DNA from: Kineococcus radiotolerans SRS30216 = ATCC BAA-149
GTDB lineage: Bacteria; Actinomycetota; Actinomycetes; Actinomycetales; Kineococcaceae
Direction of reading: 5' to 3'
DNA length: 32,000 nucleotides
Assembly: GCF_000017305.1 (NCBI RefSeq)
Contig: NC_009806.1
Span: 120,001 to 152,000 of the forward strand
A program made the translations under genes and the position numbers. Below are positions 6,019 through 24,272 of this stretch, one piece after another. The first letter of the stretch is position 1. The number at the start of each line of letters is the position of its first letter. Below the pieces are notes generated by a model. That model was not told the origin of the DNA, ran no database searches, and worked only from the letters and a program-made list of their open reading frames with translations.

Positions 6019-9000
6019 CCCTGGTCCTCGTCCCGGTCCTGGGGCTCGCCCTCGGGCTGGTGGCTGGTACTGGTGGGGGCGGCGCTGCGTCGCGGGCTGG
6101 CCTTCTTGCGCCGGCTGGGCGGCAGGGCTGCGCCGGGTGCACTGGAGGCTTCAGGGGCTGCTGCGGCGGTGACGTCCGCCGCTTGAGCTTGGTTGCGTAC
6201 GCGCGTGGGCTTGTCCAGGACGGCGGCCGCCGTGCCGGTGCTGGCGGTGCTGGTGCGCTGGGGACGTCGGATCGGTGTGGCCGGGCTCGTCGTCGACGGG
6301 CTCGTCGTCGACGGGCTCGTCGTCGACGGGCTTGTCGTCGAAGGAGGCGTCACGCGCGAGGTGGTGCGCCCGGTGCGCGTCCCGGGCTCGAGAGCGGAGG
6401 TCGCGGGTCGGGTCGCGTCACTGCGGGTGGCGGGGCGGGTGGCCGGGGGCGTGGCCGCAGCGGTCGAGGGGCTGGTGGGCTGCTTGAGCAGCTTGGAGCT
6501 GCTGGCGCGGGGCGTGGTCGAGTAGGCGATGCGGCGGGCTTCGAGGGCTGGACCGAGGATGCGGACCCGACCGATGCGGCGGTAGGAGTCGCGGAAGATG
6601 CCCTCCCCGCGCCGTTCCGGGTCGACCTTGCCGTCGGGGTCGGCGGGGTCTCGCGGAGACAGGTCGCCGGTGATCTCGTCGAGGTGCTCCTGGGTCGGCT
6701 CCAGGCCGATCCACTCCAGCGCCTTGCGGGCGAGGTTCTCGTCGGTCAGGCGCATGACGAGGCGGTAGGGAATCAGCCCACGCAGCGTCGGGGAGCCGAA
6801 GTCGTTCTCGCAGTCCTGTGAGCCCAAGCCGGCGGCCGCGCCGACCTTGCGGCCCTCGCGGACGAAGATCTCCAGCTCCTGCTCGCCTTCGATCGAGGCG
6901 GTGATGTGGTGGCACTCATCGCAGACGAAGAAGACGAGCTCGTCGGGATCGGCGAAGGCCACCGCGCGCGCCAGGGACATCAGCAGGGCGTACATGGCGC
7001 GCCCGAAGTGCTTCTCGGGGTCCATCTTGCGGAACAGGTGCTCGTTGAGGAGTTCGGCGCGGGTGGGCAGCTGCAGGCCGTGGGTGGTGAAGATCAGGGC
7101 GCGGGAGGACCACAGGTCCAGGGCCGGCAGCGTCTGGTCGAACAGGACCCGGGCGTAGCTCTTGGTGCGCAGGCCCCGCAGCTTGCGGCCCAGCTCGTTC
7201 GCGCCGGGCAGGTCGTGGCGGGCGGGGTCGAGCAGGTGCTCGGTCAGGGTCTGCAGGCTGTCGATGTCGTGCTTGGCCCGGTAGGCGGGGTCGGTGGTGT
7301 AGGTCAGGGCCAGCTCGACGTCGCTGTCGGGAACGATCGACAGCAGCGGGGTCAGCAGGCGCTGGGCCAGGCGGGAGCCTTCGTCGCCGGGGAACATGCG
7401 CAGCGGGTCCAGGCTCCACTCCAGGTACACGCCAGCGTCGAGGTTGTCCAAGACGGCGGCGACGGTGCACGAACCCAGCGAGCGGCCGAACGGGACGTAC
7501 TCGCCGGTGGATGAGCGGTCGATGCTGACCAGGCGAGCGCCGCGGTCCACGAGGGCGCCGGCCAGCGACTTCAAGGCGTAGGACTTCCCGCTGCCGAGCT
7601 CACCGGCGACGGCGACGGCGGCGGAGAAGTTGGCCAGGATGGTGGCGAACAGGTCGACCATGACCACCGATGTGGCCAAGGTGGTCTCGTTGACCGCCCA
7701 CAGGGCTCCGCGTCCATCGCCCAGGGCGCTGGAGACGTTCGGGACGGCGGCCGAGAACCCTTCTGAGAGGGAGATCTGGGTCAGGTCGTTGAACTTCTTG
7801 GGCCAGGCGGTGCCGGGCAGCATCGCCCACCAGGCGTCCTGCTGCTCCCCCAGCGGCCGCTCCAGGGGGTGGCCGAAGGCGTTGTAGAAGCGGGCGAGCG
7901 TGGCGCCGTTGATCAGGGCCTGTTCCCGGGTGGCGGCGCTGGTGGCGAAGAAGGTGATGGTCTGCAGCTCGACCTCGAGCTTGTCCTTGGCCAGCAGCGC
8001 CTGGTACTCGGTGAGGGCTGCGGCGACGGTGTCCAGCTCGTGGCTGCCGGTGGAGATCTCCCCTTCGCGCTGCATGTACTGGTCGTTGAGGTTCTTCACG
8101 GCGCGCTGGTTGCGGGAGAGGACTTCTTCGCGGGCGGTGTTGCGCATCCGCACGGCCCAGTCCACGGGCACGCCGCTGTCTTCGGCCTTGCCCAGCCACT
8201 CGGTGCCGGGGAAGACCGCACCGGCCGTGGGCGTCCCGGCGAGGACGGCCAGGGACTGGTAGGAGACCAGTGTGTCGTCGTCGGTGTCGACGATCTTGAG
8301 GACCTTGCGTTGGGACGGCAGCAGGCGTCGCAGTCGGGCGCGGAACCCCTTGCGCCAGCCGTCGGCGGGTACGTCGCTGACGGCGGCCTCGTCCAGGATG
8401 AGTCGCCCGATGCGCCCTGGGGAGGCCATGTGCTGCACCGCGGCGAGCTCGTGCTCGGTCATGTCGGCAGCGGCCTTGAGCTCGTCGGTGCTGGGGGCCG
8501 GCGGCAGCCAGGTGTCGTGCTGGCCCAGCCCGCGGGTCTGGGCGTGGCGGTAGAGCCACACGGTCTCGGCGGCGGTGGCTGGGCGGGCGTTGAAGGGGCC
8601 GGGGATGAGGGCCTGAATCTCGGCTGCCTGCTGCAGGCGGTCGGCCAGGATCGCGGTGGCCGGGACTCCCCGAGGGGCTCCGAGCTTGTTCAGCAGGCTG
8701 GTGGTGCCGGCGCGCAGGGGCTCGCTCAGGCGGCTGGCGCCGCTGTTGCGCAGCGGGACGCTGAGCCAGTAGGTGCGCTCTGACAGGGGCAGGTCGGTCT
8801 CGAGGCGTTCGGTGGTGGCTTCGACCTCAGCGGCCCACTCCGGCAGTTCCTCCAGAGGGTGGTTCAGACCGCGCAGCATGTCCCGGATGACCTGGACGGG
8901 GTCGGTGTCGACCTCGAAGCCCAGGTGCAGGGACTCCCCGCCCAGGCTGCGGTAGAGCATCTGGTGCAGGACGCGGATCTGCTCCTTCTCCGCGACCGCG

Positions 9001-9101
9001 CGACGCCCGTAGGCCTGCCCCTGCAGCCGCCACGTCGCCCAGACGGTGCCGTCGCGGGAGAAGAGCAGGTGTCCGCAGAGGTTCTGGATGGGATGTTCCA
9101 T
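6015..9101 (-). CDS. VirB4/TcpF-like conjugative T4SS ATPase with a ~170-aa low-complexity C-terminal extension
   Basis: 1028 aa. Walker A: GELGSGKSY. Walker B-like: [11 protein letters not shown]. It lies directly after a TcpE-like gene. The tail contains PSTTS x4. Confidence 0.9.
6283..6342. repeat. 15-bp tandem repeat GGGCTCGTCGTCGAC x3 plus one degenerate unit, in frame in the VirB4-like tail
   Basis: Read directly from the sequence. It encodes (PSTTS)n on the minus strand. Confidence 0.9.
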
Positions 9102-9109
9102 GGTGGTGC

Positions 9110-10000
9110 TCAGTGCCTTCCCGTGGAGCCGGTAGCAGTCAGCGGCCGGGCTGGAGAACCGGTGGTGGAGTCAGCAGCAGCTGTGGAAGTGGCTTTGGCG
9201 CGGGCCTGCTGGCGTAGCCGCTGCACGCCGGTGAGGGGCCCGGTGAGGGGCCCGGTGAGGGGCCCGGTGAGGGGCCCGGTGAGGGGCCCGGTGAGGGGCC
9301 CGGTGAGGGGCCCGGTGAGGGGCCCGGTGAGGGGTCCGGTGAGGGGTCCGGTGACCTCGTTCGGAGCCGTCACGTCCTGACGGTTCGCTGCGCTCGCCGG
9401 CACGATGGCCTGCGCACCGGTCTGGGCGATGCCAAGGAGGCCGCCTCGCCTGGCGGCTCGGGGCCGGGACGTGGACGAGACCAGGACGGGCGCGGCCTCG
9501 ACCGCGGGCGTGGGCGGGACCGGCGAGGGGTGGCGCTGCTGCAGCAGGGCTTCGGCGGCGATCATCGTGGTCTCATCGGCGATGACGATGGTGCTCATCA
9601 CAGGCGTCGCCTGACGCGCGGGCAGCGGCTTCCCTCGGTAGGTGCCCTCGGTGGCGCTGTAGCTGCCCAGCATGCCGCGCAGCACGGGGACCGGGCCGCG
9701 CCCGCGCCAGGGGACCTTGCGCATGACGATGATCACGGCCGCGGTCAGGCCCAAGAGCAGGGGCCCGTTGACGAAGAGGCCGCGGCCGCCACCCCACAGC
9801 GGCATGGTGCGGTACCCGACGACGAGCAGGCAGACGGCGGTGACGAACTGTCCGACGGTGTACGGCCCGTAGGGGATGTCGCTGCCGTTGGGCAGGCGCC
9901 CGATCAGTGTCGGGAAGCGGCGGGCGAGGGTGTAGAAGCGGGTGATGCGATGCCCGGGCGGGAGGGTGACCTCTACGCCGCCGGCGGTCGCGCTGTTCAC
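9110..10000 (-). CDS. TcpE/VirB3-like two-TM conjugation membrane protein with a long disordered C-terminal tail containing (TGPL)x10
   Basis: 296 aa, GTG start overlapping the upstream stop (GTGA). The N-terminal pattern [32 protein letters not shown] followed by two TM helices resembles the TcpE family. It is located immediately upstream of the VirB4-like gene. Confidence 0.65.
9230..9349. repeat. 12-bp tandem repeat GGTGAGGGGCCC x10 (last two units GGTGAGGGGTCC), in frame
   Basis: Read directly from the sequence. It encodes TGPL x10 on the minus strand. Confidence 0.95.
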
Positions 10001-10311
10001 AGCTGCACCGCAGAGGTGGTCGTGACGCGTCCGCTGTCCAAGTCGATCGCATCAGCGTGCACACCGGGTGTCTGCTGGACGGCGGGCAGAGCCACCGTCT
10101 TTTCGACGTCATCTGCGAGCAGATCCGGCTTCCGGACGACAACGACGACGACGGCAGCGATGACGACGGCGAGGACTACCCGGCCGAGGGTGATGGTCTT
10201 GAACCAGTTGAGGGTGGAGCCGACGACCCAGAACCCGATGAGGATCGCGAAGCCCTTGACGGTGGTTTCCGCGCTACCGGTCATCTGGTCGATGCGGTTG
10301 AAGATGTCCAT
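9997..10311 (-). CDS. Small two-TM membrane protein (TcpD-like position; possible VirB2-like)
   Basis: An internal ATG at 10309-10311 is preceded by AGGAGA. It gives MDIFNRIDQMTGSAETTVKGFAILIGFWVVGSTLNWF...VVLAVVIAAVVVVVV. The longer track ORF (to 10596) has a Pro/Arg/Ser-rich N-terminus overlapping the upstream gene and was trimmed. Confidence 0.65.
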   Translation of the reverse strand: MDIFNRIDQMTGSAETTVKGFAILIGFWVVGSTLNWFKTITLGRVVLAVVIAAVVVVVVRKPDLLADDVEKTVALPAVQQTPGVHADAIDLDSGRVTTTSAVQL

Positions 10312-10354
10312 GGCTGTCTCCTGAATGAGGTGAGAAGGGGTTGGTTGGGTCGGG

Positions 10355-11704
10355 TCAGGGGTGCTGCGCGGCGGTGCTGGCAGCAGGTGAGGCGTTGGCC
10401 GCGGAGCTGGCTGGGTGCGCGGTACCGGCGGCCGTCGGCAAGGTGAGCGCCGGGCCGGGGGCGATGGACGAGATCTCCCAACGCCCACCGCGGGCCGTGA
10501 GGTCCAGGGCGTACTGGGTGCTGCCGGGCTGCTGGTCGCGGTTGCCGAAGACGGCGGTGACCAGGACCTGGGCGTGCTGTCCGTCGGAGGGTGCATCCGA
10601 GGTGGGATCGTCCTCGCGGGCCAGGACGGACTGGACCTGCACGCTGAGGTAGGGCGCCGGCGTGATGGCCTTGATGACGTGGCCTGGGGTCACGTAGCGG
10701 GTGACGTCTCCGCTTCCCGTGGCGTAGGCCGCCAGGAACTGGCTGATGCTGGTGCCCAGGCCACCGGTGATGTTGACCTGCTGGTTGTAGGCCAGCTCGG
10801 CCCCCTCCCCCGAGACCGGGCCGGCGACCGGGGTGGGCAGCAGCAGCGCGCGCATCTGCCGAACCGGCATGCTCGAGGCCGCTCCAGCGGTCGGGCCGGT
10901 CACGGCAGTGGGTGCAGCAGCAGATGCAGAGCGTGAGGCGCCCGCAGCGGCCGTGCTCATCCCGTTCGTAGTCCCCACCTGCGCCAGGACGGGCACCGCG
11001 AAGTAGCGCCGGACCATCACGCGGGCTCCCGTGCTGTCGGGCTCTTCCACGTCAGCGGCGACGGTGACCTGCCACGCCGTCGAAGGGCCCGCAACGCCGT
11101 CCTGCTGCTCTGTTTCTGCGCCTGCCTCTCCCGCAGCGCTCTGGTCCGTGTTCGCGGCCGGTGCGCTGGGTGCGGCGGCGTAGTCCTGCACGTGCGTGAC
11201 GTCGGCGACAGCCACGTTCTGGATCCGCGAGACGGTCGAGGGCAGTCGGAACCCGTTGCTGGTCTGCAGGTAGAAGCTCAGCGCCTGCTCGTTACCGGCG
11301 GGGGTGGTCAGCCAGGCGGTGACGAACTCCTCCGCGAAGTTGCCCACCGCCGCGACCTCACCCGGGTCCTGCTGAGCGGCGGTGGACGCCGGTACTTGCG
11401 TGGACACGCGGATACCGGCCTGCCACCACAGGAGCAAAGCCGCCGGCCCAGCCAGCAGCGCCAACAGCAACAGCAGGCGCACCAGGCCAGCGCCGTGGGC
11501 GGCCCCGGAGGTCCAGCCCATCGTCCGGGCAGCCTGAGGGGCGTCCTGCGAGGTGTCGCCCTGACGGCCCTTGGAGCTGCTGCGGTTGGCGCCGACGCGG
11601 TTGGCGCCGCGGTTCAGGCGCGCCCGTAGGCCAGTGACCTCGCTGTCGATGGACGCCGGGGCGTTCGCCGATCGCGCCGCGGTTCGACGCGAGGCAGTCA
11701 GCAT
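10355..11704 (-). CDS. TcpC/VirB8-like conjugal transfer protein (single TM, large extracytoplasmic part)
   Basis: 449 aa. TM LVRLLLLLALLAGPAALLLWW is followed by GNFAEEFVTAWLT, a TcpC-like N-terminal motif. Its position relative to the small membrane proteins and VirB4 matches pCW3 tcpC-D-E-F. Confidence 0.6.
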   Translation of the reverse strand: MLTASRRTAARSANAPASIDSEVTGLRARLNRGANRVGANRSSSKGRQGDTSQDAPQAARTMGWTSGAAHGAGLVRLLLLLALLAGPAALLLWWQAGIRVSTQVPASTAAQQDPGEVAAVGNFAEEFVTAWLTTPAGNEQALSFYLQTSNGFRLPSTVSRIQNVAVADVTHVQDYAAAPSAPAANTDQSAAGEAGAETEQQDGVAGPSTAWQVTVAADVEEPDSTGARVMVRRYFAVPVLAQVGTTNGMSTAAAGASRSASAAAPTAVTGPTAGAASSMPVRQMRALLLPTPVAGPVSGEGAELAYNQQVNITGGLGTSISQFLAAYATGSGDVTRYVTPGHVIKAITPAPYLSVQVQSVLAREDDPTSDAPSDGQHAQVLVTAVFGNRDQQPGSTQYALDLTARGGRWEISSIAPGPALTLPTAAGTAHPASSAANASPAASTAAQHP

Positions 11705-12306
11705 GGCTGCCCGCCGATGCCGGTGATGTGGCCTGGGCCGGTCGCGATACGGCGGATCCCGCTCCAGCCGTAGACGGTGCCCAGCTCGAGCAGCAGGTCG
11801 CTGACCCGCTGGGTGCCACGGGGAGCCGATCCGCGGTCAGTGCCGGTCGGCAACACCGTTGTCGGGGCCCGCTCAGGCGCAAGGCTGTCCGACAGCCTCG
11901 TGGAGGCCGCGTCGGCGACGGCGAGGCGGTCCTCGATCCCCTCGTCAGACGCTTCGTCGGTACCGGCCAGCTCCTCGTCCCCGCGAACCTGCGCGCCCTG
12001 CAAGACGTGCCAGCTGGAGCGTGCTCGCTGCCACCGTGCACTGCTCAGCAGCTCGACCACGGCAGTAGCCGCTGCCAGGTCGAAGGGCTGGGACTGCAGC
12101 GTGCTCAGGCGGGCGCGCAGGGTCTGCATGCCGTCATAGGCCTCGGCGGTGGCGAAGAGCAGCTCCCCCACGACTTCCGGCGCATCTCCGTTCTGCCCTT
12201 CGGCGCTCGCCGGCGCGGTGCAGCTTCGTGCCGCGAGCGCGGACGGAGTCAGCTCGTGGGATGTGTCGGTCGGGCAGATGTCGGGTGCGGGTTCGTTCTC
12301 GGTCAT
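11698..12306 (-). CDS. Hypothetical acidic cytoplasmic protein, first gene of the T4SS operon
   Basis: ATG at 12304-12306 is preceded by GGAGGA (MTENEPAPD...). Its stop overlaps the next start by 7 nt. I recognise no motif. Confidence 0.65.
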   Translation of the reverse strand: MTENEPAPDICPTDTSHELTPSALAARSCTAPASAEGQNGDAPEVVGELLFATAEAYDGMQTLRARLSTLQSQPFDLAAATAVVELLSSARWQRARSSWHVLQGAQVRGDEELAGTDEASDEGIEDRLAVADAASTRLSDSLAPERAPTTVLPTGTDRGSAPRGTQRVSDLLLELGTVYGWSGIRRIATGPGHITGIGGQPC

Positions 12307-12470
12307 CGCTTCCTCCGGCCGTGGGTACAGGACGGGGCTCCCCCAGGTCCCTCTCATCGAGGTAGGTGCCTGCTCGCTGGGGGGTGTGACCGGAAGAGGT
12401 CAACAACTTTCGTCACCGAGAGTGATGTAGGTCACATCTCCGCTCGCAGGTCTCTGACCTGGGCAAACGA

Positions 12471-12598: not shown

Positions 12599-13618
12599 AT
12601 GTCTTCCACTCCCCTGCTGTCCCGCTCCAGCGCCTCCCGCGGCCTGCTGCCGTGCTCTTGCCAGCAAGGCAGCCGGGCGGCCTACACCCGCTCGTACTCG
12701 GCGCGCCTGCAGGTGTGCGCCGCCCTGAACCGGGAGTGGGACGCGATCCTGGAGGCTGGGCAGCACAACGAGCAGGTGGCCCGCTGGAGTCGCGGGCCCC
12801 TGCGCCACACCAGCGCCGCGGGGGTCGGATCGGTTCAGGATCTCGAGCAGGCGTGCCGTGACGCGGCAGGCAGCGCGAACGACACCCTGCTGCTGGCGCT
12901 ACTTCGCGCCTACCAGGACGGAGAGGCCTTCGCCGGCCGCGTCCTCCTGCAGCTGTTCCTGGGCAAGATCGTCCGCATGGGCCTGCCGGGTCGGACCGGC
13001 AGCACCGCCGAGGAGTACGAGTCCGACGCGTTGGAGGCCTTCTGGACGGTCATGAGCACCTACCCCTGCGACCGGCGGCCTCGCAGCGTCGCCGCCAACC
13101 TCGCCCTGGACACCCTGCACCAGGTGCGGGTGCGCCCCCAGACCATCGAGCGCCTGGACTGGGACCTGTGGAGCTGGGAGCTGCACAACCACGAGGAGCG
13201 GGCTAAGGAGCACGACCCCACCAGCAGCGTCCTCGTCCTTATCCGCGACGGACTGCAGGCCGGGGCCATCAGCGACGGGGAAGCCCAGCTGCTGGCGATG
13301 ACGTACGCGCCCTCCTCGGTGCCGATCACCGGCGTCGAGATGAGCATGCAGCTCGGGATTTCTGCGGCAACCCTGCGCCAGCGCACGTCGCGGGCGGTGG
13401 CACGCCTGAGCGCCTTCGTGCACGAAGACACCTCCGCTCCCCAGAGGCGCCTCTCCCCTACCTGCCCGGCCAAGACGCTTGTGACCGACCTGTCGCACTG
13501 GACCGACGAGTGCGAGCTTCTCGAGCTCATGGGCGCTACGGGGACGGCGAGCTCCGTGCACAGACGTCGGGACATGGGCCAGCAGGCAAGCCGACACGTC
13601 GGCTCGCACGAGCGCTGA
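12599..13618 (+). CDS. Sigma-70 family (ECF-like) sigma factor-like protein with N- and C-terminal extensions
   Basis: 339 aa. GGAG lies 7 nt upstream of the ATG. Region-2-like: EEYESDALEAFWTVMSTYPCDRRPRSVAANLALDTLH. Region-4-like HTH: ITGVEMSMQLGISAATLRQRTSRAVARL. Confidence 0.55.
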   Translation: MSSTPLLSRSSASRGLLPCSCQQGSRAAYTRSYSARLQVCAALNREWDAILEAGQHNEQVARWSRGPLRHTSAAGVGSVQDLEQACRDAAGSANDTLLLALLRAYQDGEAFAGRVLLQLFLGKIVRMGLPGRTGSTAEEYESDALEAFWTVMSTYPCDRRPRSVAANLALDTLHQVRVRPQTIERLDWDLWSWELHNHEERAKEHDPTSSVLVLIRDGLQAGAISDGEAQLLAMTYAPSSVPITGVEMSMQLGISAATLRQRTSRAVARLSAFVHEDTSAPQRRLSPTCPAKTLVTDLSHWTDECELLELMGATGTASSVHRRRDMGQQASRHVGSHER

Positions 13619-13625
13619 TGCAGTA

Positions 13626-14117
13626 GCTCGCACGCAGGCTCGCACGCAGGCTCGCACGCAGGCTCGCACGCAGGCTCGCACGCAGGCTCGCACGCAGGCT
13701 CGCACGCAGGCTCGCACGCAGGCTCGCACCCAGGCTCGCACGCAGGCTCGCACCCAGGCTCGCACCCAGGCTCGCACCCAGGCTCGCACCCAGGCTCGCA
13801 CCCAGGCTCGCACCCAGGCTCGCACCCAGGCTCGCACCCAGGCTCGCACCCAGGCTCGCACCCAGGCTCGCACCCAGGCTCGCACCCAGGCTCGCACCCA
13901 GGCTCGCACCCAGGCTCGCACGCAGGCTCGCACGCAGGCTCGCGTCCCGGCTCGCGTCCCGGCTCGCACCCAGGCTCGCGTCCCGGCTCGCGTCCCGGCT
14001 CGCACCCAGGCTCGCGTCCCGGCTCGCGTCCCGGCTCGCGTCCCGGCTCGCGTCCCGGCTCGCGTCCCGGCTCGCGTCCCGGCTCGCACGCAGGCTCGCG
14101 TCCCGGCTCGCACGGCG
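13626..14117. repeat. Array 1: 41 contiguous 12-bp units GCTCGC-NNNNN-G (variants ACGCA x12, ACCCA x17, GTCCC x11, one ACGGC)
   Basis: Counted unit by unit. The order is A8 B A B14 A2 C2 B C2 B C6 A C A'. There are no spacers. The array starts 8 nt after the sigma-like stop, and degenerate units continue into the gene end (13602-13625). Confidence 0.97.
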
Positions 14118-14244
14118 GCTTGTCCACAGACGCGTGTCCCTGCCGTTCTCCCGGCCTGCGTCATCGCTACGGTTCAGGCAATCAGCAGCCCGCACCCCAG
14201 TGAGCGCGCTCCGGTGGACATGGCCGAGGGCGCAGACGAGGACG

Positions 14245-15264
14245 ATGAGCATGGCCACCCCCACCATCGACCGCGATGGGCTCGGTCGAGCCCTTGCCTT
14301 CAGCAACATCAAGGGCGGCGTGGGCAAGACGTTCGCCACCGCGCAGTGCGCCGGCCTGCTGGCTTCAGTACCGGACTACCGCGTCTTGGCCGTCGACCTG
14401 GACATCCAGGGCAACCTGGACGAGGACTTCGGTCTGGGTGACCGCAGCGACGGAGGTCAGGGCCTGCTGCAGGCGGTCATGACGGGGACGGCTCCTCAGC
14501 CCCTCATGGACGTACGTCCAGGCTTGGACGTCATCTGCGGTGGCGAGTACCTGGCTGACCTTGCCGACGTCATCGACGCGCAGGCGAAGCGCCAACGCGA
14601 CCCCAACCGCGCCTACAACGCGCTGGCGACGTGCTTGAGCCCCCTGGCTGCCGACTACGACTGGCTGCTCTTCGACTGCCCCCCGGGCAACGAGACCTTG
14701 CTGCAGATGGCGCTGGGCGCGGCTCGTTGGGTGGTCATCCCCACTCGCACCGATGACTCCAGCCGCAAGGGCCTGCGCAAGGTGGCGCGCCGGTTCGTCG
14801 AGGCTCGCGCCGTCCGCGGGCCTGAAGCCCCTCTGGACCTGCTCGGCATCTTCCTCAGCGCCGTCAACAGCTCGGCCAAGACCCTGCGCCGAGAAGCGCG
14901 GGACGCGATCATCGGCGACCTGGGCCCCGCGGGGGAGCAGCTGATGCTCAACACGGTCATCCGCTACGCAGAGTCCTCTGCCAGCGGGGCCCGCAACCGC
15001 GGCCTGCTGGTGCATGAGCTCGAGCAGCAGGTCGCTACGGCCGAGCCGTGGTGGCAGGCCGCCCGCGAGGGTCGCCCCGTCGTGTCACAGCCCGGCGCAG
15101 CCAGTGCTGCCGGCCTGGCTTCGGACTTCCAGTCACTGGTGCAAGAGCTACTGGCCCGCATCAGCGCCGCCGAGTCCACCGATGGCGCAGCCCACAGCCA
15201 AGAGGTCAACGACGACGTCGACGCGTACGTGCAGGCCGCACTGCGCCAAGACGCGAGCGCCTGA
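14245..15264 (+). CDS. parA: ParA partition ATPase (deviant Walker A)
   Basis: AFSNIKGGVGKTF is a deviant Walker A. VLAVDLDIQGN and WLLFDCPPG are also present. The track ORF starts at GTG 14134 inside the repeat edge; ATG 14245 or 14251 is more plausible (GAGGAC lies 7 nt before 14251). Confidence 0.9.
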   Translation: MSMATPTIDRDGLGRALAFSNIKGGVGKTFATAQCAGLLASVPDYRVLAVDLDIQGNLDEDFGLGDRSDGGQGLLQAVMTGTAPQPLMDVRPGLDVICGGEYLADLADVIDAQAKRQRDPNRAYNALATCLSPLAADYDWLLFDCPPGNETLLQMALGAARWVVIPTRTDDSSRKGLRKVARRFVEARAVRGPEAPLDLLGIFLSAVNSSAKTLRREARDAIIGDLGPAGEQLMLNTVIRYAESSASGARNRGLLVHELEQQVATAEPWWQAAREGRPVVSQPGAASAAGLASDFQSLVQELLARISAAESTDGAAHSQEVNDDVDAYVQAALRQDASA

Positions 15265-15359
15265 TCAGGGCCGTGAGACGGCGCCCTCACTCAGACCCGA
15301 CGCGGCTTGCGGCTCACATGGCAGCTTGCATGTCCACTGACGCTGTAGCTGAGACGTCG

Positions 15360-15515
15360 GCTCGCACGCAGGCTCGCACGCAGGCTCGCACGCAGGCTCG
15401 CACGCAGGCTCGCATCCCGGCTCGCACGCAGGCTCGCATCCCGGCTCGCATCCCGGCTCGCATCCCGGCTCGCATCCCGGCTCGCACGTCGGCTCGCATC
15501 CCGGCTCGCACGTCG
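15360..15515. repeat. Array 2: 13 contiguous 12-bp units of the same family (ACGCA x5, ATCCC x6, ACGTC x2)
   Basis: Counted directly. Same orientation and same invariant GCTCGC core as array 1. It lies between the parA stop and the next gene start. Confidence 0.97.
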
Positions 15516-15605
15516 GCTCGCCGGTAGTGCCTAGGGTCCCGCTGTTGCGCTGCTGGCGGGCTCGTTCACCTTTCCTCATCCACCTCTGTCAGCACTGGAG
15601 ACGAC

Positions 15606-16508
15606 ATGAGCTCGAACACTCCCGGTCCCGCGAAACCTGCTCGCGGCCTGCCCACACCAGAGATCGACCTGGCCAGCGCCTTTCAGCCCTCCAGCGCCGT
15701 GGACCACACCAAGGGCCTGGGCGGAATGAGCCGTCGGCGGCCCGTGCGAGCCGCCGACTCAAGAGTCAGTGAAGCTGGGGCACGTGCTGGCGAGTCGGAG
15801 ACGAAGTCCATGGCAGCGGGGGAGGGGTCATCCCCGGCTCCGCGGGGACGACAGGCCGGCCCCGCGGAGCCGGCCCGCTTGGAGGTGGTGGAGCCCCTCA
15901 AGCAGCCGGGGGAGCAGGGTGCCTCTCCCGAGGGGGCGACGCAGGCCCCAGGGGCAGGAGACGTCACGCAGGATCCGACAGCGCTGAGGACCGGGGCGCC
16001 GGTGGCGACCCGCACGGAGTCCGCTCCTCGTGCCCGGCGTACGAGGTCGGTTGCGACGGGGGAGGGCGCGACGTCACGCAGGGCTCGTAGCGGATCGCCG
16101 ACCTCCTCAGCCCGACGGACGGCAGCAGGCGACGAGCCGAAGGCATCGGGGCGGCCGGCGGCGACCAAGGGCGGCGTGGCCTACGTGCCCGCAGCTACAC
16201 GCGACCTGCTGGCGAGGCTTCGGGGAGACCGGGGCCGGACCCTCGGGGAGCTGGTGCTGAAGGCCTTGAACGCGCAGCACGCCCAGTTGGCCGAGCTGAT
16301 GCAGCAGCGTCGTCCTCAGGTGGTCGAGGGCCCGCTGTTCTCCATGGCTCCTCCGCCTTCGCAGGTGCCGACGGTGCAGATCGCCATGCGCTTGAGCCAA
16401 GCCCACTGGGATGTGCTGGACACGCTGGTTGAGCAGTACGGGGCAGCCAACCGCGGCGAGCTCATCGACGCCGTCGTCCAGGCGGAGTACGGCTCCACCA
16501 GCGCGTGA
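15606..16508 (+). CDS. Putative centromere-binding partner of ParA: ~190-aa Arg/Pro/Ala-rich disordered N-terminus plus two tandem RHH-like motifs
   Basis: 300 aa. GGAGACGAC precedes the ATG. RHH-like 1: VAYVPAATRDLLARLRGDRGRTLGELVLKALNAQ. RHH-like 2: VQIAMRLSQAHWDVLDTLVEQYGAANRGELIDAVVQAEY. It sits directly after parA. Confidence 0.5.
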   Translation: MSSNTPGPAKPARGLPTPEIDLASAFQPSSAVDHTKGLGGMSRRRPVRAADSRVSEAGARAGESETKSMAAGEGSSPAPRGRQAGPAEPARLEVVEPLKQPGEQGASPEGATQAPGAGDVTQDPTALRTGAPVATRTESAPRARRTRSVATGEGATSRRARSGSPTSSARRTAAGDEPKASGRPAATKGGVAYVPAATRDLLARLRGDRGRTLGELVLKALNAQHAQLAELMQQRRPQVVEGPLFSMAPPPSQVPTVQIAMRLSQAHWDVLDTLVEQYGAANRGELIDAVVQAEYGSTSA

Positions 16509-16634: not shown

Positions 16635-16876
16635 CGCCACTCCCAGTCGCTCTGACTACCCTCACGGGGTAGCCATTACCCTCCCAAGGTAGTGAAGACC
16701 CCCCATTCGGTGTAATACTCGCCCCCGTCCAGGCCCCGGGGGTGCCCGGTCGAAAGATTCCGGCGTCACCGGTCACACCTGATGGCCTGCCTGCACCTAC
16801 CGCAGTGAGCGGGGATTCCGGAGCAGCCTCCGGTCCAGAGCACGCTCGGCGGGAGGTGGAGAGGTGGAGCACGCAG

Positions 16877-17146
16877 GTGACGACAGGAGCCGCAGTGCTG
16901 CGGAGACCCCGAACGCCGCTGGCTACCCTGACCGCCGTGGTGGAGCCGTCTCGTACCGACTGGTGGCTGCTGGAGGACGTCGCAGTCTTCTTGGGCAGCT
17001 CCAAGAGCACGGTGACCGCCTACCGCTCCCGCGGGCAGCTTCCGGCGGCGGACACGACCTTCGGTCGATCCCCGGCCTGGCGCCCGCAGACGATCCGCGA
17101 TTGGGCTGCGCGCCGGCCCGGGCAGGGCTGGCGCAAGACCACCTGA
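16877..17146 (+). CDS. Excisionase/MerR-type helix-turn-helix DNA-binding protein (Xis-like)
   Basis: WWLLEDVAVFLGSSKSTVTAYRSRGQLPAADTTFGRSPAWRPQTIRDWAARRPGQGW fits the excisionase-family HTH pattern. The start is uncertain: the track ORF begins at 16742, and I prefer GTG 16877 (GGTGGAG 7 nt upstream). Confidence 0.55.
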   Translation: MTTGAAVLRRPRTPLATLTAVVEPSRTDWWLLEDVAVFLGSSKSTVTAYRSRGQLPAADTTFGRSPAWRPQTIRDWAARRPGQGWRKTT

Positions 17147-18873: not shown

Positions 18874-19632
18874 ATGTCCTTGACCAAAGCCGCGCAGAAG
18901 ACGCCCAACGGCACCCCCACCGCGACCGCAGCTGCCCTCAAGGACGCCTCGACGACCCCGACCAAGGGAGCGTCCATCAGGGCCCGCAAGAGCGATGGGA
19001 CCCCGGCACGCTCGCGCCCTCAGACCAAGAGCAGCAGCCAGGCGAAGACGAACCGACCGATGGCCGCGCTCGCGGTTCTGATCATCGTCGGCTCGGCCAC
19101 CGCTGGGGCGGTGCTGTACTCCAGCGCCGGTGACCGTCACGACGTGCTCGCCCTGGCCCGCGACGTGCCCGCCGGACAGAAGATCACCGCGGAGGACCTG
19201 CGGGTCGCTGAGGTCAACGGGTCGGGCTTCTCCGCGGTCATCAAGGAGCACGCCGACCAGGTCGTGGGCTCGACCGCCATCTCGAGCCTGCCCGAAGGGG
19301 CCCTGCTGACGAACAAGATGTACCAGGACGACCCGATCCCCGAACCGGGCAACGTCATCGTGGGGGCTTCGCTGAAGCCGGGTTCGGTGCCCTCGGACGC
19401 GCAGCCCGGGCGTCGGGTGGCCGTCTGGAAGGTCGGCGTCGTCAACGGCAACGCGCCGGTCGCCGACGCCGAGCAGATCGTGGAGTCGGCGCTGGTGACC
19501 GAGGTGTCCACCGACGTCGCCGGCGGCAACACGCTGCTGTCGCTGGACCTGCCCCGCGACAGCGCCGCCGCGTACACCTCCGCCGCGGCCGCGGGCACCG
19601 TGGCCGTCTCGGTGCTGCCGGTGGGCTCCTGA
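18874..19632 (+). CDS. cpaB: CpaB/RcpC-like Flp pilus assembly protein (TM + SAF domain)
   Basis: AGGAG lies 6 nt upstream. TM: MAALAVLIIVGSATAGAVLY. The SAF-like segment is VLALARDVPAGQKITAEDLRVAEV...LPEGALLTNKM. Confidence 0.8.
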   Translation: MSLTKAAQKTPNGTPTATAAALKDASTTPTKGASIRARKSDGTPARSRPQTKSSSQAKTNRPMAALAVLIIVGSATAGAVLYSSAGDRHDVLALARDVPAGQKITAEDLRVAEVNGSGFSAVIKEHADQVVGSTAISSLPEGALLTNKMYQDDPIPEPGNVIVGASLKPGSVPSDAQPGRRVAVWKVGVVNGNAPVADAEQIVESALVTEVSTDVAGGNTLLSLDLPRDSAAAYTSAAAAGTVAVSVLPVGS

Positions 19633-20960
19633 TGGCCCTCATCGTGCTCGGGGCAGCCAAGGGCGCCCCCGGAGTGACCACGACGACCGCCGCCCTGGCC
19701 GCGGTGTGGCCGACCCCCGCGCTCCTCGTCGAAGCCGACCCCAGCGGGTCCGACCTGCAGCTGCTGGCGCGCGGGGACAACGGCCGCCACCTGCAGGGTG
19801 GTCAGCGCGGCGCCGGAGTCCTGGGTCTGGCCAGTCACGGCGGGAACCGCTCCACCCTCCTGAAGGAGCCCATCACCCAGAGCTGCGACCTCGGCGTGCC
19901 CGTGATCATCGGCCCCCCGCACCCGCGGGCCGCGCAGGCGATGGGGCCGGCGTGGAACCAGGTGGGCAACGCTCTGGCTCAGCTCTCCCGCGAAGGCGAG
20001 TTCGACGTCCTGGTCGACATCGGCCGCCTCGACGACGAGAGCGTCGCCCTGCCCCTGATCAGCCGTGCCGACGTCGTGGTGCTGGTGACCCGGCGCAACC
20101 TGCGTGGCATCGCGCACACCCGCCGAGTGGCCGCCATCGTCGAGGAGCAGCTGCGCCTGAACTCCGCCGCCGCTGCTGGCGCCACCCCGCGCCTGCTGAT
20201 CGTCGACGACCTCGACACCCCCAAGCGCGTCGAGACTCAGTGGCCCCTGGCCGCGCGGGGTCTCACCCACTCCTGGTCGATGCTGCCGCCGATCACCTGG
20301 GACGCCGCCGGAGCCCGCGACCTCTTCGACGCCACCGCCGCCCAGCGCGACACCAGCGCCTTCCTCACCTCCGTGCGCACCATCGCCACCGAGCTGCACG
20401 ACATCGCCCGGCACTTCGCCGCCCCCGCCGGCGGCGACGCCGCGCTCGGAGCCGCACCCGAGCTTCCGAGTCAGTCCGTCGCGCCGTCGCCGCAGGCCGT
20501 CACCTCCTCGACGACTTCATCGGGCTCCTCGACTCCTGCGGCCGCCGCGGAAGCGCTGGGCACCACCAAGGACCTGGGTGGGCACCCGGCATCTCCCGAC
20601 ACCGCCGGTCTGAGTCCGCTGCAGGTCGGCGCGGTGGGCCCCCCGGTTCCTGCCGGCGTGGTGTGGCCCCCGCTGCCGCCGTCGCGACGAGGAACGGCTG
20701 CCGGCTCGCACGCCAGCGACTTCGGCACCGACCTGGACGCCAGCCTGGAAGAGCGAGACCCGGCCAAGACCGGTGAGAACCCCGACTCCGCGAGCGCCAC
20801 CGAGGAAGACCCCGACTCCGCGAGCGCCACCGGCCCCAGCACCGACCCCAGCACCGACCCCAGCACCGCCCGCGACGAGGAGACGGCTCCTGATCCGGTG
20901 ACCGTCACGCACCCCCACCGTGATCCGCAGCTGACGAGCTCAGGAGCAGGACAGCGATGA
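19632..20960 (+). CDS. TadZ/CpaE-like ParA/MinD-fold protein with a degenerate Walker A, plus a repeat-rich acidic Pro/Ser/Thr tail
   Basis: IVLGAAKGAPGVTTTTAALA occupies the position of KGGxGKT/S, with no Lys after the second Gly. DVLVDIGRLDD is Walker-B-like. It sits between cpaB and tadA. Its ATG overlaps the cpaB stop by 1 nt. Confidence 0.65.
   Translation: MALIVLGAAKGAPGVTTTTAALAAVWPTPALLVEADPSGSDLQLLARGDNGRHLQGGQRGAGVLGLASHGGNRSTLLKEPITQSCDLGVPVIIGPPHPRAAQAMGPAWNQVGNALAQLSREGEFDVLVDIGRLDDESVALPLISRADVVVLVTRRNLRGIAHTRRVAAIVEEQLRLNSAAAAGATPRLLIVDDLDTPKRVETQWPLAARGLTHSWSMLPPITWDAAGARDLFDATAAQRDTSAFLTSVRTIATELHDIARHFAAPAGGDAALGAAPELPSQSVAPSPQAVTSSTTSSGSSTPAAAAEALGTTKDLGGHPASPDTAGLSPLQVGAVGPPVPAGVVWPPLPPSRRGTAAGSHASDFGTDLDASLEERDPAKTGENPDSASATEEDPDSASATGPSTDPSTDPSTARDEETAPDPVTVTHPHRDPQLTSSGAGQR
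20779..20869. repeat. In-frame repeats in the TadZ-like tail: a 24-mer ACCCCGACTCCGCGAGCGCCACCG twice at 30-bp period, then CCCCAGCACCGA x3
   Basis: Copies at 20779-20802 and 20809-20832, and the 12-bp units at 20834-20869. They encode PDSASAT x2 and PSTD x3. Confidence 0.9.
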
Positions 20961-22315
20961 CTCTTCAACCCCTCACCTCTGGCATCGAGCAGCTGCCCGA
21001 CACCTCCCAGGTCGTCGACTTCGCCCTGGTGCAGCGTCTGCGGACGACGGTGGCGGCCGGCCTGAACGCCGAGCGCCGGCGGCGAGCCGACGACGAACAG
21101 CTGCGGGAGATGACCAGCCAGGACGAGCTGCTCTTCGCTGACTCCCTGATCACCCGCAGCATTGCGGCGGAGAAGCAGGACCAGATGCAGCTCGGGCACC
21201 GCCTGACCGGGGAGGATGAGCTGCGCGCGGCCCTGCGCGCAGCGATCTTCGGTCTGGGCCGACTGCAGCCGCTGGTGGACAACCCCGCGCTCAGCGACAT
21301 CGCCATCAACGGCTGCGACCAGGTCTGGGTCAAGACCCTCAGCGGGCAGAAGCTGCGCGGTCCGGCCGTCGCGGAGTCCGATGAGGAACTCATCCAGTGG
21401 GTTCGTGACACCGCGACCTACAACGGGTTGTCGTCTCGTCCCTTCGACCCGGCCAACCCCTACCTGCAGATGCGCCTGCCCGGCAACCACCGCCTCACCG
21501 CACAGATGTCGACCTCGGAACGTCCGGTGGTCTCGATCCGCCTCTACCGACTGCAGTCGGTGCGCATGCACGAGCTGCACGCCCGGGGGATGTTCACCGA
21601 CCGCATCGGCGCTTTCCTGCACGCCGCGGTACGCGCCAAGAAGGCGATCATGCTGGTGGGGGAGACCGGCTCGGGCAAGACCACGCTGCTGCGGGCGCTG
21701 GCCAACGAGATCCCGGCCCGCGAGCGCATCATCACCATCGAGCACTTCCTGGAGCTGGGGTTGCCCCCCGAGCTGCACCCGGACCTGGTCGCCTTCGAGG
21801 AGCGACCCGCCAACGCCGAGGGCCTCGGCGCGGTGACCATGGAGGACCTGGTCATGAACTCCCGGCGCATGGACCCCGATCGGGTCATCCTCGGGGAGTG
21901 CATTGGGCCTGAGGTGGTCGCGCTGCTGGACTCCATCACCCAGGGCAACGCCGGGGGACTGTCCACGATCCACGCCCCCACCGCCCACGCGGCCATCGAC
22001 AAGATCGCCCTCTACGCGGTCAAGGCGCCCACGCCGCTGACGATGGAGGCGGCCAACATGCTGACCTCCATCGGGTTGGATCTGCTGGTCTTGGTGAAGA
22101 AGACCGAGCTGCCCGACGGCACCGTCCGTCGTCACGTCGCCAGCATCGTCGAGGTCGGCAAGTACGACGGGCAGCAGGTCATCACCAACGAGCTCTTCAG
22201 AGCGCCGACCGGCGCGGTGCAGGCCCTGCCCAAGGCCGCGCTGTCGGACGAGCTTCGCGAGAGCCTGAAGGCTGCCGGCTACGACGACAAGCAGTGGGCG
22301 CAGGACGCGCGATGA
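20957..22315 (+). CDS. tadA: TadA/CpaF pilus assembly secretion ATPase
   Basis: 452 aa. Walker A: VGETGSGKTTLLRAL. Typical CpaF stretches: RIITIEHFLEL, DRVILGECIGPE, GGLSTIHA. ATGA overlap with the upstream gene. Confidence 0.95.
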   Translation: MTLQPLTSGIEQLPDTSQVVDFALVQRLRTTVAAGLNAERRRRADDEQLREMTSQDELLFADSLITRSIAAEKQDQMQLGHRLTGEDELRAALRAAIFGLGRLQPLVDNPALSDIAINGCDQVWVKTLSGQKLRGPAVAESDEELIQWVRDTATYNGLSSRPFDPANPYLQMRLPGNHRLTAQMSTSERPVVSIRLYRLQSVRMHELHARGMFTDRIGAFLHAAVRAKKAIMLVGETGSGKTTLLRALANEIPARERIITIEHFLELGLPPELHPDLVAFEERPANAEGLGAVTMEDLVMNSRRMDPDRVILGECIGPEVVALLDSITQGNAGGLSTIHAPTAHAAIDKIALYAVKAPTPLTMEAANMLTSIGLDLLVLVKKTELPDGTVRRHVASIVEVGKYDGQQVITNELFRAPTGAVQALPKAALSDELRESLKAAGYDDKQWAQDAR

Positions 22316-23358
22316 TCGACCAGACCTTCCTGCTGGTCACCCTCGCCGGTCTCGTCTTCGGGTTGGGTGTCGTCCTGCTCGTGCTGGCCCTGCGCGGTCA
22401 GGGCGCCGGCGTTCGCCCACCGCGGGCCTTGCAGCTGGGTCATTGGCCGCGCGAGACCAGGATCCGCTGGGGCGTGGCGGTGGCCGGGGGGCTGCTGACC
22501 CTGCTGATCACCCGGTGGATCACCGTGGCGCTGGCCATCGCCGTGATCGCGGTGATGTGGCCGCGTCTGTTCGGCGGCGCGCGCAGTCAGGCTCGCCAGA
22601 TCCGCAAGCTGGAGGCGCTGGCCAGTTGGGTGGAGTCGTTGCGCGACACCATCAGCACCGGGCAGGCACTGCCGGAGGCCCTGCCGGCCAGCGCACTGAC
22701 CGCGGCCCCTGAGATCGCCGAGCCGCTGGCGAACCTGTTGGACCGCATGCGCGCGCGCCAGTCCCTGGACCAGGCGCTGCTGCTGCTGGCCGATGACCTC
22801 GACGATCCTGAGGCGGACAGCGTCATCGGCGCGTTGGCCATGAACGCACGGGTGCAGGGCAAGCGGCTCAACGTGGTGCTGACGTCGCTGGCGGAGTCGG
22901 CGCGCAAGCAGCTGACCATCCGCCGTGAGATCGAGGCCGGGCGGGCGAGCATGCGCCGCGGGGTGACGTTCGTGATCATCACCACCTGCACGCTGGTCAT
23001 CGGCATGACGGTCTTCAACCGCGACTACGTCGAGCCGTACTCCACCGTCACCGGTCAGATCGTCTTGGCCATCGTCATCGGGCTGTTCACCGCCGGCTTG
23101 TTCTGGCTGCGGCGCCTAGCCGACTTCGAGACCCGGCGCCGGTTCCTGGTGACACCCCAGACCACCTCGCAGGCGGCGGCTCAGTCCCTCCAGCCCGTCC
23201 CGTCGGCTCAGTCCGGGGAGCGAGCTGACGTGCGGGGCGCAGGCGAGGTCGACGTGGCCTCGTCCTTGGACCTGCCTTCGGCGCCGACGCTGGCTCCCGC
23301 CGGGGTCACCTCTGCCCCGACCTCCGCCTCGACCTCTGCCTCCGGAGGGACCCGATGA
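22312..23358 (+). CDS. tadB: TadB-like T2SS-F family inner-membrane platform protein
   Basis: ATG 22312 overlaps the tadA stop (ATGA). It has N- and C-terminal TM helices and a central cytoplasmic helical domain typical of the family, plus a low-complexity C-terminal tail. Confidence 0.8.
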   Translation: MIDQTFLLVTLAGLVFGLGVVLLVLALRGQGAGVRPPRALQLGHWPRETRIRWGVAVAGGLLTLLITRWITVALAIAVIAVMWPRLFGGARSQARQIRKLEALASWVESLRDTISTGQALPEALPASALTAAPEIAEPLANLLDRMRARQSLDQALLLLADDLDDPEADSVIGALAMNARVQGKRLNVVLTSLAESARKQLTIRREIEAGRASMRRGVTFVIITTCTLVIGMTVFNRDYVEPYSTVTGQIVLAIVIGLFTAGLFWLRRLADFETRRRFLVTPQTTSQAAAQSLQPVPSAQSGERADVRGAGEVDVASSLDLPSAPTLAPAGVTSAPTSASTSASGGTR

Positions 23359-24272
23359 CCGCGATGGTGCTGGTGGCCATGCTGCTGGCGGCGGGTCTGC
23401 TGCTGCTGGTGCGCGCGCTGCGTCCCTCCCAGCCTTCCCTCGGTGAGCAGCTGGCCCGCTTGGGCGCGCAGACCAGCTACGACGAGCGGTACCGGGCCGC
23501 GGCCAGCACCGCACGCTCGCACACCTCCAAGGCCCACCGGTGGCTGGCCCGGCGCCTGGCCGGCACCCCGGTCATGACCAGCACCATCGACGACAAGCTC
23601 AGCCGCGACCTGTCCCTGCTCAACGTCGACGCCGCCGCGTTCACCGCAACCCGAGTGGCCATGGTCGCGGCCGGGTTCCTCCTCGCTCCGGTCCTCTGCT
23701 TCATCGCCTTGGCCGTCACCGGTGGAAGCACTCCCGCGGTGGTGGTCCTGACCGTGACGTTGCTCGTGACGTTGGTGGCCTACGTGGTGCCGGCCCGGCG
23801 GGTGCACAGCACCGCGGAGTCGCGGCGCGCAGACTTCCGCGCCGCCATCACCTCCTACATGGACTTGGTGGCCATGCGCGCCGCGTCTGGGGCCGGCGCC
23901 TCCGAAGCCCTCGCCGACGCAGCGCGCATCGGACGCGGATGGCCTTTCGCGCGCGTCCGCCTGGCCCTGGCCGATGCGCGCATCAGCGGCTACACCCCTG
24001 CCCGCGCGCTGGGACGGCTGGGAGAAGAGATCGGCATGCACGAGCTGCAGGACCTCTCCGCGCAACTGCTGCTGGCCGACGCGACCGGCGCGCAGGCCGA
24101 GGTGACCTTGCGCGAGCGCGCTCGGTCGTTGCGCGATGCCCAGCTGGCGGTAGCCCAGGGCAAGGCCGGTGAACGCAGCCAGACGATGGTCATCGCGCAG
24201 CTGCTGCTGGCGTTGGGGTTCATGCTCTTCGTCCTCTACCCGCCGGTCTCGAACTTCATGACGGCGCTGTGA
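23355..24272 (+). CDS. tadC: TadC-like T2SS-F family inner-membrane platform protein
   Basis: ATGA overlap with tadB. Architecture is the same as TadB (TM, helical domain, C-terminal TM pair MVIAQLLLALGFMLFVLYPPV). Confidence 0.8.
   Translation: MTAMVLVAMLLAAGLLLLVRALRPSQPSLGEQLARLGAQTSYDERYRAAASTARSHTSKAHRWLARRLAGTPVMTSTIDDKLSRDLSLLNVDAAAFTATRVAMVAAGFLLAPVLCFIALAVTGGSTPAVVVLTVTLLVTLVAYVVPARRVHSTAESRRADFRAAITSYMDLVAMRAASGAGASEALADAARIGRGWPFARVRLALADARISGYTPARALGRLGEEIGMHELQDLSAQLLLADATGAQAEVTLRERARSLRDAQLAVAQGKAGERSQTMVIAQLLLALGFMLFVLYPPVSNFMTAL

Follow-up and report, generated by a model that had tools for sequence, protein, structure and literature searches.

Type I partition systems with a ribbon-helix-helix (RHH) ParB, formerly called "type Ib," are understood from few models, namely TP228, pB171, pSM19035, and pCXC100, in which symmetric RHH dimers bind repeats of 4-9 bp. 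In pB171, two repeat clusters composed of 6-bp repeats flank the operon. TraY of the F plasmid is a classic single-chain tandem RHH protein. The centromere of pCXC100 has been footprinted and consists of nine uninterrupted 9-nt repeats (PMC3074162). In pSM19035, delta, omega, and copS each have a separate array of heptads overlapping their promoter, and ParA is activated only if at least four repeats are contiguous (PMC9499535). We describe here three arrays of 12-bp units with a GCTCGC core found in a 32,000-nucleotide stretch (hereafter the window) of the linear plasmid pKRAD01 (CP000751) of Kineococcus radiotolerans, a plasmid that was Sanger-sequenced and finished in a study that makes no mention of these repeats or of partition (PMC2587704). 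A first-pass annotation of the window had likened the repeats next to parA to type Ib centromeres. With a probability of about 0.72, we consider the three arrays to be the binding-site arrays of a type I RHH-ParB partition system on pKRAD01, a reading supported by the conserved position, phase, and core of the arrays, by covariation of the repeat period with the type of centromere-binding protein (CBP), and by the RHH fold predicted for the candidate CBP.

The traits of a type Ib locus that can be assessed in DNA are present, i.e., a ParA protein devoid of a helix-turn-helix (HTH) domain, a CBP of predicted RHH fold encoded downstream, and an array of short repeats next to parA. The parA gene (14251-15264, plus strand) codes for a deviant Walker-A ATPase of 337 aa that lacks an N-terminal HTH domain, its KGGVGKT motif being some 20 residues into the sequence. 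It matches the Pfam families AAA_31 (1.3e-21) and CbiA (3.5e-12), and it is 100% identical to K. radiotolerans ParA and 40-46% identical to annotated ParAs of actinobacterial plasmids. The candidate CBP gene, orf300, follows on the same strand (15606-16508). The first-pass description of a deviant-Walker ParA followed by an RHH-type protein is supported for both folds, but the second protein is a 300-aa tandem RHH protein rather than a small one, and an array intervenes between the two genes.

Array 1 (13626-14117, plus strand), when cut into 12-mers, consists of 41 head-to-tail units, each composed of GCTCGC, five further nucleotides, and G, with the hexamer at positions 1-6 and the G at position 12 of every unit. 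Its variable pentamers are ACGCA (A), ACCCA (B), and GTCCC (C), and they succeed one another in blocks, in the order A8 B A B14 A2 C2 B C2 B C6 A C A'. Unit A (GCTCGCACGCAG) occurs 12 times, unit B (GCTCGCACCCAG) 17 times, unit C (GCTCGCGTCCCG) 11 times, and A' once. Tandem Repeats Finder (TRF) reports a period of 12 bp and 40.7 copies, with a score of 661, over 13626-14113. The number of units, their core, and their block order are exactly those given by the first-pass annotation. Its boundaries are those of the perfect units, while the phased structure with its in-phase flanks is longer, at 49 units and 588 bp (13602-14189). Two leading units, GCTCGCACGAGC and GCTGATGCAGTA (13602-13625, plus strand), overlap the stop codon of the upstream gene orf339 and run into the perfect array with no break in register. 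On the other side, six degenerate, ancestral-type units, from GCTTGTCCACAG to GCAATCAGCAGC (14118-14189, plus strand), form an in-phase tail with a lag-12 autocorrelation of z 3.2, which aligns without indels to the related loci L131, L133, and L125 described below. The 41 perfect-core units would thus be the homogenized part of a putative centromere/operator. Within the tail of all relatives, a TGTCCAC(A/T)G motif (GCTTGTCCACAG in the window) is conserved in phase (window 14118-14129; L125 9872-9883; L131 around 8627), and a similar sequence, ATGTCCACTGAC, is found just before array 2 (15330-15341). This motif may belong to a promoter or offer a second site for binding.

The dispersal of the repeats into three arrays was also correctly perceived at first reading. 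Array 2, at approximately 15348-15527 (plus strand), lies between parA and the CBP gene and comprises 14 GCTCGC units at 15360-15527 preceded by one in-phase unit, with the variants ACGCA, ATCCC, and ACGTC. Array 3 (30962-31069, plus strand) has nine GCTCGC units, eight perfect A units and a partial one, and is located 65 bp past a prepilin-peptidase gene, with orf78 following about 380 bp further downstream. All three arrays are intergenic and on the same strand, and unit A is common to them. Across the window, GCTCGCAC was observed 52 times, against 4.75 +/- 2.3 expected, and 44 of these 52 copies fall inside the arrays. The units are contiguous, with no spacers, and CRISPR was rightly set aside. 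Runs of identical A units in direct orientation are present at 13626-13721 (96 bp), 15360-15407 (48 bp), and 30962-31057 (96 bp). They are 1.7 kb and 17 kb apart, and homologous recombination between them could delete parA or the entire par-Tad segment. A search for inverted repeats near array 3 that might form an oriT-like structure found none.

The arrays are conserved in related loci. The metagenomic contig ERZ24825746 k141_100478, which holds loci L131 and L134, is syntenic with the window and encodes an orf300 homologue of 75% identity. All three arrays are found there at homologous positions, in degenerate form and in unbroken 12-bp register, with a GCT(C/T)GCA(C/T) core and variable spacers. 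Upstream of parA are 28 units with the consensus GCTnnCA, many of which read GCT(C/T)GCAC (L131 8363-8698), about ten degenerate phased units lie between parA and the orf300 homologue (L131 9788-9907), and six degenerate GCTCGCAC units follow the prepilin-peptidase gene (L134 9542-9613). Locus L133 is similar to L131, with about 29 units in the homologue of array 1 and about ten degenerate phased units in that of array 2. L125, whose ParA is 81% identical, has 21 phased units at 9692-9943 and eight at 11118-11213, with GCTGGC/GCCAGC cores. The parA-proximal tail of the array aligns between species without indels. Measured against shuffled sequences, the information content per column at period 12 gave z = 28.6 for L131, 17.2 for L125, and 7.2 for L129, while periods of 9-11 and 13-15 remained near background (z <= 3.8) and the 4-bp harmonics 8 and 16 stood out. 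A 4-bp sub-periodicity is indeed present in the 12-bp arrays (window; L131 8363-8698; L125 9692-9943), with periods 8 and 16 also rich in information, and unit A can be parsed as GCTC-GCAC-GCAG. In more distant relatives the architecture is kept and the motif has changed. Thus, the core is GGTA in L129, and L130 has a near-perfect 25-bp tandem in ten copies at a contig end. Every locus examined has an orf300-family gene after parA.

Such a pattern, in which the core stays phased and in place across species and the spacers vary freely, is what marks an array as protein-binding. The perfect arrays of pKRAD01 most likely represent a lineage-specific homogenization of an older functional array, as judged from these alignments. 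Since unit A is found in all three of them, while in the relatives the spacers differ from unit to unit, the comparison suggests that the arrays of pKRAD01 exchange sequence with one another.

The repeat period was compared with the type of CBP by lag autocorrelation upstream of parA in loci of ParA relatives (~38-46% identity) on actinobacterial plasmids. Loci with a tandem-RHH CBP show lag-12 periodicity. In the linear plasmid pLP2 of R. qingshengii (L144 800-1437), z reaches 9.0 over about 50 degenerate units with a TTCC core, and in pGS01 of R. fascians (L003 1990-2490) it is 5.6 over about 40 degenerate units with an nGTA core. No gene is found over these two arrays in the parts of the PLSDB table checked, which covers protein-coding genes only. 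The tandem-RHH loci of R. antarcticus and Aeromicrobium gave weak lag-12 signals. In contrast, a lag of 9 (z 3-11) characterizes six of eight loci with a pCXC100-type single-RHH ParB, one of the others being ambiguous and one giving no signal, and it is also found in two further loci with no annotated CBP. This 9-bp period reproduces the footprinted centromere of pCXC100, which validates the approach, and it was seen only in loci with a single-RHH ParB or with no annotated CBP, not in pKRAD01. The binding unit appears to set the pitch, 9 bp for an RHH dimer and 12 bp for a tandem-RHH monomer. An array of this subfamily typically comprises 21 to about 50 units.

From N- to C-terminus, the orf300 protein has a conserved peptide, some 180 aa of low complexity, and a domain of about 110 aa, conserved in its homologues, with two beta-alpha-alpha motifs (beta1 encoded at ~16164-16190, beta2 at ~16371-16397). 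The N-terminal peptide, GLPxPEIDLxxAFQPSSxVDHTxGLGGxSRR, is conserved in close relatives. An exhaustive HMMER search yielded 134 representative homologues, mostly of 170-260 aa, with the domain at the C-terminus. The evidence for the fold comes from an alignment of 98 sequences. Pfam RHH_1 matches 53 of the 98 members (best E 9.9e-10) and RHH_10 matches seven (best 4.9e-08). Motif 2 corresponds to RHH_1, and motif 1 to RHH_5, RHH_10, and Antitox_RHH, while the family profile also has weak matches to MazE9, CopG, and NikR for motif 2 and to VapB26 and 56B for motif 1. AlphaFold2 (AF2) modeling on this alignment returned a beta-alpha-alpha x2 topology with a mean predicted local distance difference test score (pLDDT) of 92.6 and a predicted template modeling score (pTM) of 0.82, the elements being beta 13-21, alpha 22-35, and alpha 39-60, followed by beta 82-90, alpha 91-104, and alpha 109-121. 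The ten best Foldseek matches in the PDB are chains E, F, and G of the F-plasmid relaxosome (probability 0.97-1.00, template modeling score ~0.45-0.54), and a sequence search identified chain 9f0x_E, together with 18 chains across the same six entries, as TraY. VirC2 and AvtR are also in the Foldseek list, as much weaker matches (E 0.39-2.3, probability 0.15-0.30). The orf300 product is therefore modeled as a disordered tail of about 180 aa followed by a single-chain tandem RHH domain. Neither Pfam nor the PDB gave matches when searched directly with the orf300 sequence of the window or with a four-sequence profile, and AF2 with a four-sequence alignment reached a pLDDT of 54.7 only, with meaningless Foldseek output, and was replaced by the 98-sequence run. 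With hhalign, the two RHH halves of orf300 did not match each other significantly, nor did either half match a four-member alignment of pCXC100-type ParBs (E 0.1-0.35), and no pCXC100 ParB chain was among the reported matches of PDB profile searches with orf300.

From these observations we infer which protein binds, and how. Given its tandem RHH domain, one orf300 monomer would provide a complete, asymmetric, two-stranded beta-ribbon, and through this hetero-ribbon it would read one asymmetric 12-bp unit with the core GCTCGC(A/G)(C/T). One monomer per asymmetric unit would explain that all units with a GCTCGC core have the same orientation. Monomers might load contiguously, head to tail, at a pitch of 12 bp, rotating by about 50 degrees per unit relative to a 10.5-bp helix, and thus form a helical coat over 100-600 bp. 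The disordered N-terminal tails with their conserved peptide would then recruit ParA and stimulate its ATPase activity, resulting in the positioning of plasmid copies. As in pSM19035, the arrays that precede parA, the CBP gene, and orf78 probably double as operators that autoregulate these genes, and the regulatory role envisaged as an alternative in the first-pass annotation is compatible with a partition function and probably part of it. As for the block-wise perfect repeats, slippage, unequal exchange, or gene conversion would recently have homogenized and expanded a phased array that was ancestrally degenerate.

Array 1 is open to translation, which initially gave rise to spurious genes. 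Three open reading frames (ORFs) cross it, as had been pointed out; they lie on the minus strand, measure 421, 355, and 267 aa, and overlap genuine genes, namely orf339 in all cases and also the start of parA for one of them. The plus-strand frames are free of stops, yet they have no start codon. A frame plot of G+C content at third codon positions (GC3) shows a coding signal in orf339 (12599-13618) and in parA (14251-15264) and is flat across most of array 1. Coding repeats were thus ruled out for the GCTCGC arrays by the absence of plus-strand starts, the overlap of the minus-strand ORFs with genuine plus-strand genes, the mostly flat GC3 profile, and the lack of a gene call there in the relatives. 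The arrays also affect assembly. In three independent short-read assemblies of K. radiotolerans, the parA contigs are only about 1.3 kb long, and the one that was read has both its ends inside arrays (1 and 2). Short-read data confirm the existence of the repeats, not the number of units, and the counts rest on the Sanger-finished reference. Since such arrays create three spurious repeat-protein ORFs and break short-read assemblies, recognizing them improves annotation.

The repeat unit was also sought elsewhere, as had been recommended. A scan of genome collections for GCTCGC N5 G x3.5 returned at least 120 loci in diverse phyla, with unrelated 12-mers in 3-18 units, and none of the ACGCA, ACCCA, and GTCCC variants was among the matches listed. 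With a variant-aware pattern, a viral scan gave one irrelevant locus, and a metagenome scan gave 34 loci of 3-5 units each, with no homologues of ParA, the CBP, orf339, or orf78 nearby. Searches of plasmids with blastn gave only low-complexity matches to a CGCTCC-type repeat of Streptomyces plasmids, which is not homologous. Short unrelated 12-mers that share the hexamer thus occur sporadically in GC-rich genomes, and among the matches listed there is no other array with more than five units of the A/B/C variants, nor one adjoining par genes. On the strength of these public scans, the 12-bp unit is not a common minisatellite.

The par locus is flanked by modules for a type IV secretion system (T4SS) and a Tad pilus. 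The T4SS module, of Gram-positive type, occupies about 590-12357 on the minus strand and comprises AAA_10/VirB4-like, TcpC-like, and NlpC/P60 proteins. A second 12-bp tandem is present in this cluster, at 9228-9354 (CCGGTGAGGGGC x10.6, minus strand). It is coding, being inside the ORF 9110-10000, and it specifies (GPLT)x10 in the C-terminal tail of a 296-aa membrane protein, whose homologue in L131 (3856-4713, minus strand) has a single SPLSG at this place. Directly upstream of array 1, orf339 (12599-13618, plus strand) has a weak sigma-70 region-4-like HTH, its C-terminal segment faintly matching sigma-70 region-4/HTH_10 families with E 0.07-0.19 (Sigma70_r4 E 0.069, not significant), and Kineococcus-type relatives have a gene at the same position. 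An HTH_17 gene (16742-17146) follows orf300, and the Tad/Flp pilus cluster extends over 18874-30896. In that cluster, between genes for TadE/TadG-like pilins and the prepilin peptidase, a 1255-aa ORF (26182-29949; 1117 aa in the relative) has long low-complexity stretches rich in Ala, Ser, and Pro and no Pfam match. Downstream of array 3, orf78 (31445-31681, plus strand) encodes a small protein with a weak signal for NikA-like relaxosome RHH proteins (PF21983, E 0.01, below the cut-off), 94% identical in ERZ24825746 k141_100478. It is possibly a regulated target or an alternative array binder, and it may mark an oriT/relaxosome or replication-control module. Past the equivalent of the 3' end of the window, L134 has a 36-bp, internally palindromic tandem (GACCTACCGGCAGACCTGACCGGTAGGTCCGATCAC) in 4.3 copies (10966-11120), within or next to a 386-aa HTH_36 gene downstream of the orf78 homologue, which is a candidate iteron or origin region. 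An Rfam scan of the window found no families.

Could the arrays serve something other than partition? They might be pure operators of a global repressor that coordinates par, conjugation, and replication genes, the partition site being elsewhere. Each array precedes the start of a gene or operon, namely that of parA, the CBP gene, or orf78, the degenerate tail of array 1 abuts the conserved parA-proximal region, RHH proteins are classic repressors, and the sites of pSM19035 regulate three promoters. However, the operator array is also the centromere in every characterized RHH-ParB system (PMC3074162, PMC9499535), 28-50 units (340-600 bp) far exceed what repression needs, and no other candidate centromere was seen adjoining parA. 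The two roles being compatible, an exclusive operator function appears unlikely. It is more doubtful still that another protein, be it the sigma-r4-like orf339 product, the HTH_17 protein, or the NikA-like orf78 product, binds the arrays and that orf300 has its target elsewhere. The genes of all three are conserved by the arrays in Kineococcus-type relatives, and orf78, downstream of array 3, is 94% conserved. Yet pGS01, pLP2, Aeromicrobium, and R. antarcticus keep 12-bp arrays with a tandem-RHH gene directly after parA amid different neighbors, the upstream genes of pGS01 being on the opposite strand, and the period tracks the CBP type. In addition, the predicted beta-strand residues differ where the core differs (window and L131 vs. 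L125, L129, and L130), which is suggestive only.

The perfection of the repeats raises the question of whether array 1 might be a neutral or selfish minisatellite, or a recombination or contingency locus, produced by slippage and with no specific protein partner, whose copy number may modulate parA expression or promote inter-array deletions. Perfect block-wise repeats are typical of recent slippage, the same plasmid has expanded a 12-bp unit inside a coding region, and identical A units in three direct-orientation arrays could drive deletions. In the relatives, however, units that are not identical maintain their phase, their core, and their position across hundreds of bp with no indels. This is a pattern that slippage is unable to generate, and it implies selection on a phased motif, with expansion layered on a functional array. 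We regard an origin by slippage alone as improbable, below the two preceding alternatives, and the hotspot and contingency roles entertained at first are not needed to explain the data. Least credible of all is that the linear plasmid has its origin at the arrays, these being replication iterons. Iterons do consist of direct repeats and are often located close to par and rep genes, but they are usually 17-22 bp long and spaced, while the units here have 12 bp and are uninterrupted. The arrays flank parA rather than a rep gene, their dispersal over 17 kb would be atypical for an origin, and the 36-bp repeat (x4.3) by the HTH_36, Rep-like gene of the relative is a better candidate.

Several points weigh against the interpretation of the arrays as partition sites bound by orf300. 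The covariation of period and CBP comes from a small sample, in which two tandem-RHH loci give only a weak 12-bp signal and L130 has a 25-bp unit. The assignment of orf300 as the binder rests on adjacency and covariation, and orf339, the HTH_17 protein gene (16742-17146), and orf78 are also conserved nearby. The comparison of orf300 with pCXC100-type ParBs is not significant at the sequence level. The lengths of the arrays are without long-read support, the 41, 14, and 9 units being counts of the reference assembly. The degenerate tail of array 1 (14118-14189) probably overlaps the parA promoter, whose position is deduced only. A scan for sigma-70 promoters and terminators around parA found none, a result that is uninformative for an actinobacterium of 71% GC, and with no promoter predicted there the operator overlap is a conjecture. 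Finally, since pKRAD01 has also expanded a 12-bp unit in coding DNA, (GPLT)x10, a general tendency to slippage may contribute, and mutational bias, rather than selection, may account for how perfect and how long the arrays are.

A broader proposal, which we regard as evenly balanced, is that orf300 and its 134 representative relatives constitute an uncharacterized class of plasmid partition adaptors. These would be monomeric, single-chain tandem-RHH CBPs of TraY fold that assemble head to tail on 12-bp-phased unidirectional arrays of 20 to about 50 units, in place of dimeric RHH ParBs on 7-9-bp repeats, with the arrays of pKRAD01 undergoing concerted evolution and perhaps coupling partition to the regulation of the CBP gene and of a NikA-like/Rep-like module. 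Neither a 12-bp par centromere, nor a tandem-RHH partition protein, nor these repeats or partition on pKRAD01 were found to be described in a literature search of incomplete coverage. If the proposal is true, one polypeptide makes up a whole RHH unit and acts as an asymmetric, monomeric building block on a 12-bp unit in very long phased arrays. Such systems would offer natural tests of how contiguity, polarity, and pitch lead to ParA activation, of how centromere specificity, and hence plasmid incompatibility, diversifies, and of how centromere arrays evolve by concerted homogenization. The orf300 family is widespread on actinobacterial plasmids, including the linear plasmids of Rhodococcus, where partition is poorly characterized.

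Among known systems, that of pCXC100 from Leifsonia xyli subsp. cynodontis resembles the pKRAD01 locus in being carried by an actinobacterial plasmid and in having a ParA of the same broad group, the ParA of pKNR, a plasmid with a pCXC100-type ParB, being about 40% identical to that of the window. It also has an uninterrupted centromere of short direct repeats immediately upstream of parA, and its CBP combines a flexible N-terminal tail with a C-terminal RHH domain and has no detectable sequence signature (PMC3074162). In contrast, pCXC100 has nine or ten 9-nt repeats (~90 bp), RHH homodimers, and parB directly after parA, whereas pKRAD01 has a 12-bp unit, 49 phased units plus two arrays, a predicted single-chain tandem RHH protein, and an array between parA and the CBP gene. 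The orf300 protein is also outside the pCXC100 ParB sequence family, which is defined by a single RHH and a W-S-x-F-V ... P-G-R tail. In pSM19035, likewise, contiguous, non-palindromic short repeats are bound by an RHH ParB, and separate arrays overlap the parA and parB promoters as well as that of a copy-control gene. It differs by its 7-bp heptads, at 7-10 per site and in mixed orientations, by its dimeric omega protein of 71 aa, and by its Firmicute host, while pKRAD01 has 12-bp units in a single orientation, up to 41 perfect units, and a proposed monomeric tandem-RHH CBP.

In TP228, the parH/ParG/ParF system similarly has short degenerate boxes with variable spacers upstream of a ParA-family gene and an autoregulating RHH protein (PMC3130281). 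Its parH site differs in being about 100 bp of tetramer boxes with AT-rich spacers, and both TP228 and pB171 have small dimeric RHH proteins and neither perfect tandem units nor arrays of at least 500 bp. TraY is the best structural match to the C-terminal domain of orf300, with two RHH modules in one chain forming a pseudo-dimer, but sequence identity is only about 15%. Unlike what is proposed for orf300, TraY binds oriT in conjugative nicking, has no ParA partner, and lacks both a long disordered N-terminal tail and long phased arrays. In the loci examined, orf300 is linked to parA and not to oriT or a relaxase. Part of what had seemed unusual in the first-pass annotation has precedents, namely the multiple arrays, the large number of units, and the off-helical spacing, which is normal for RHH arrays (7 bp for omega, 9 bp for pCXC100). 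The variable spacers of the relatives have precedents as well. The pKRAD01 locus differs from every characterized type Ib example in the length of its unit, the length of its array, and the architecture of its CBP.

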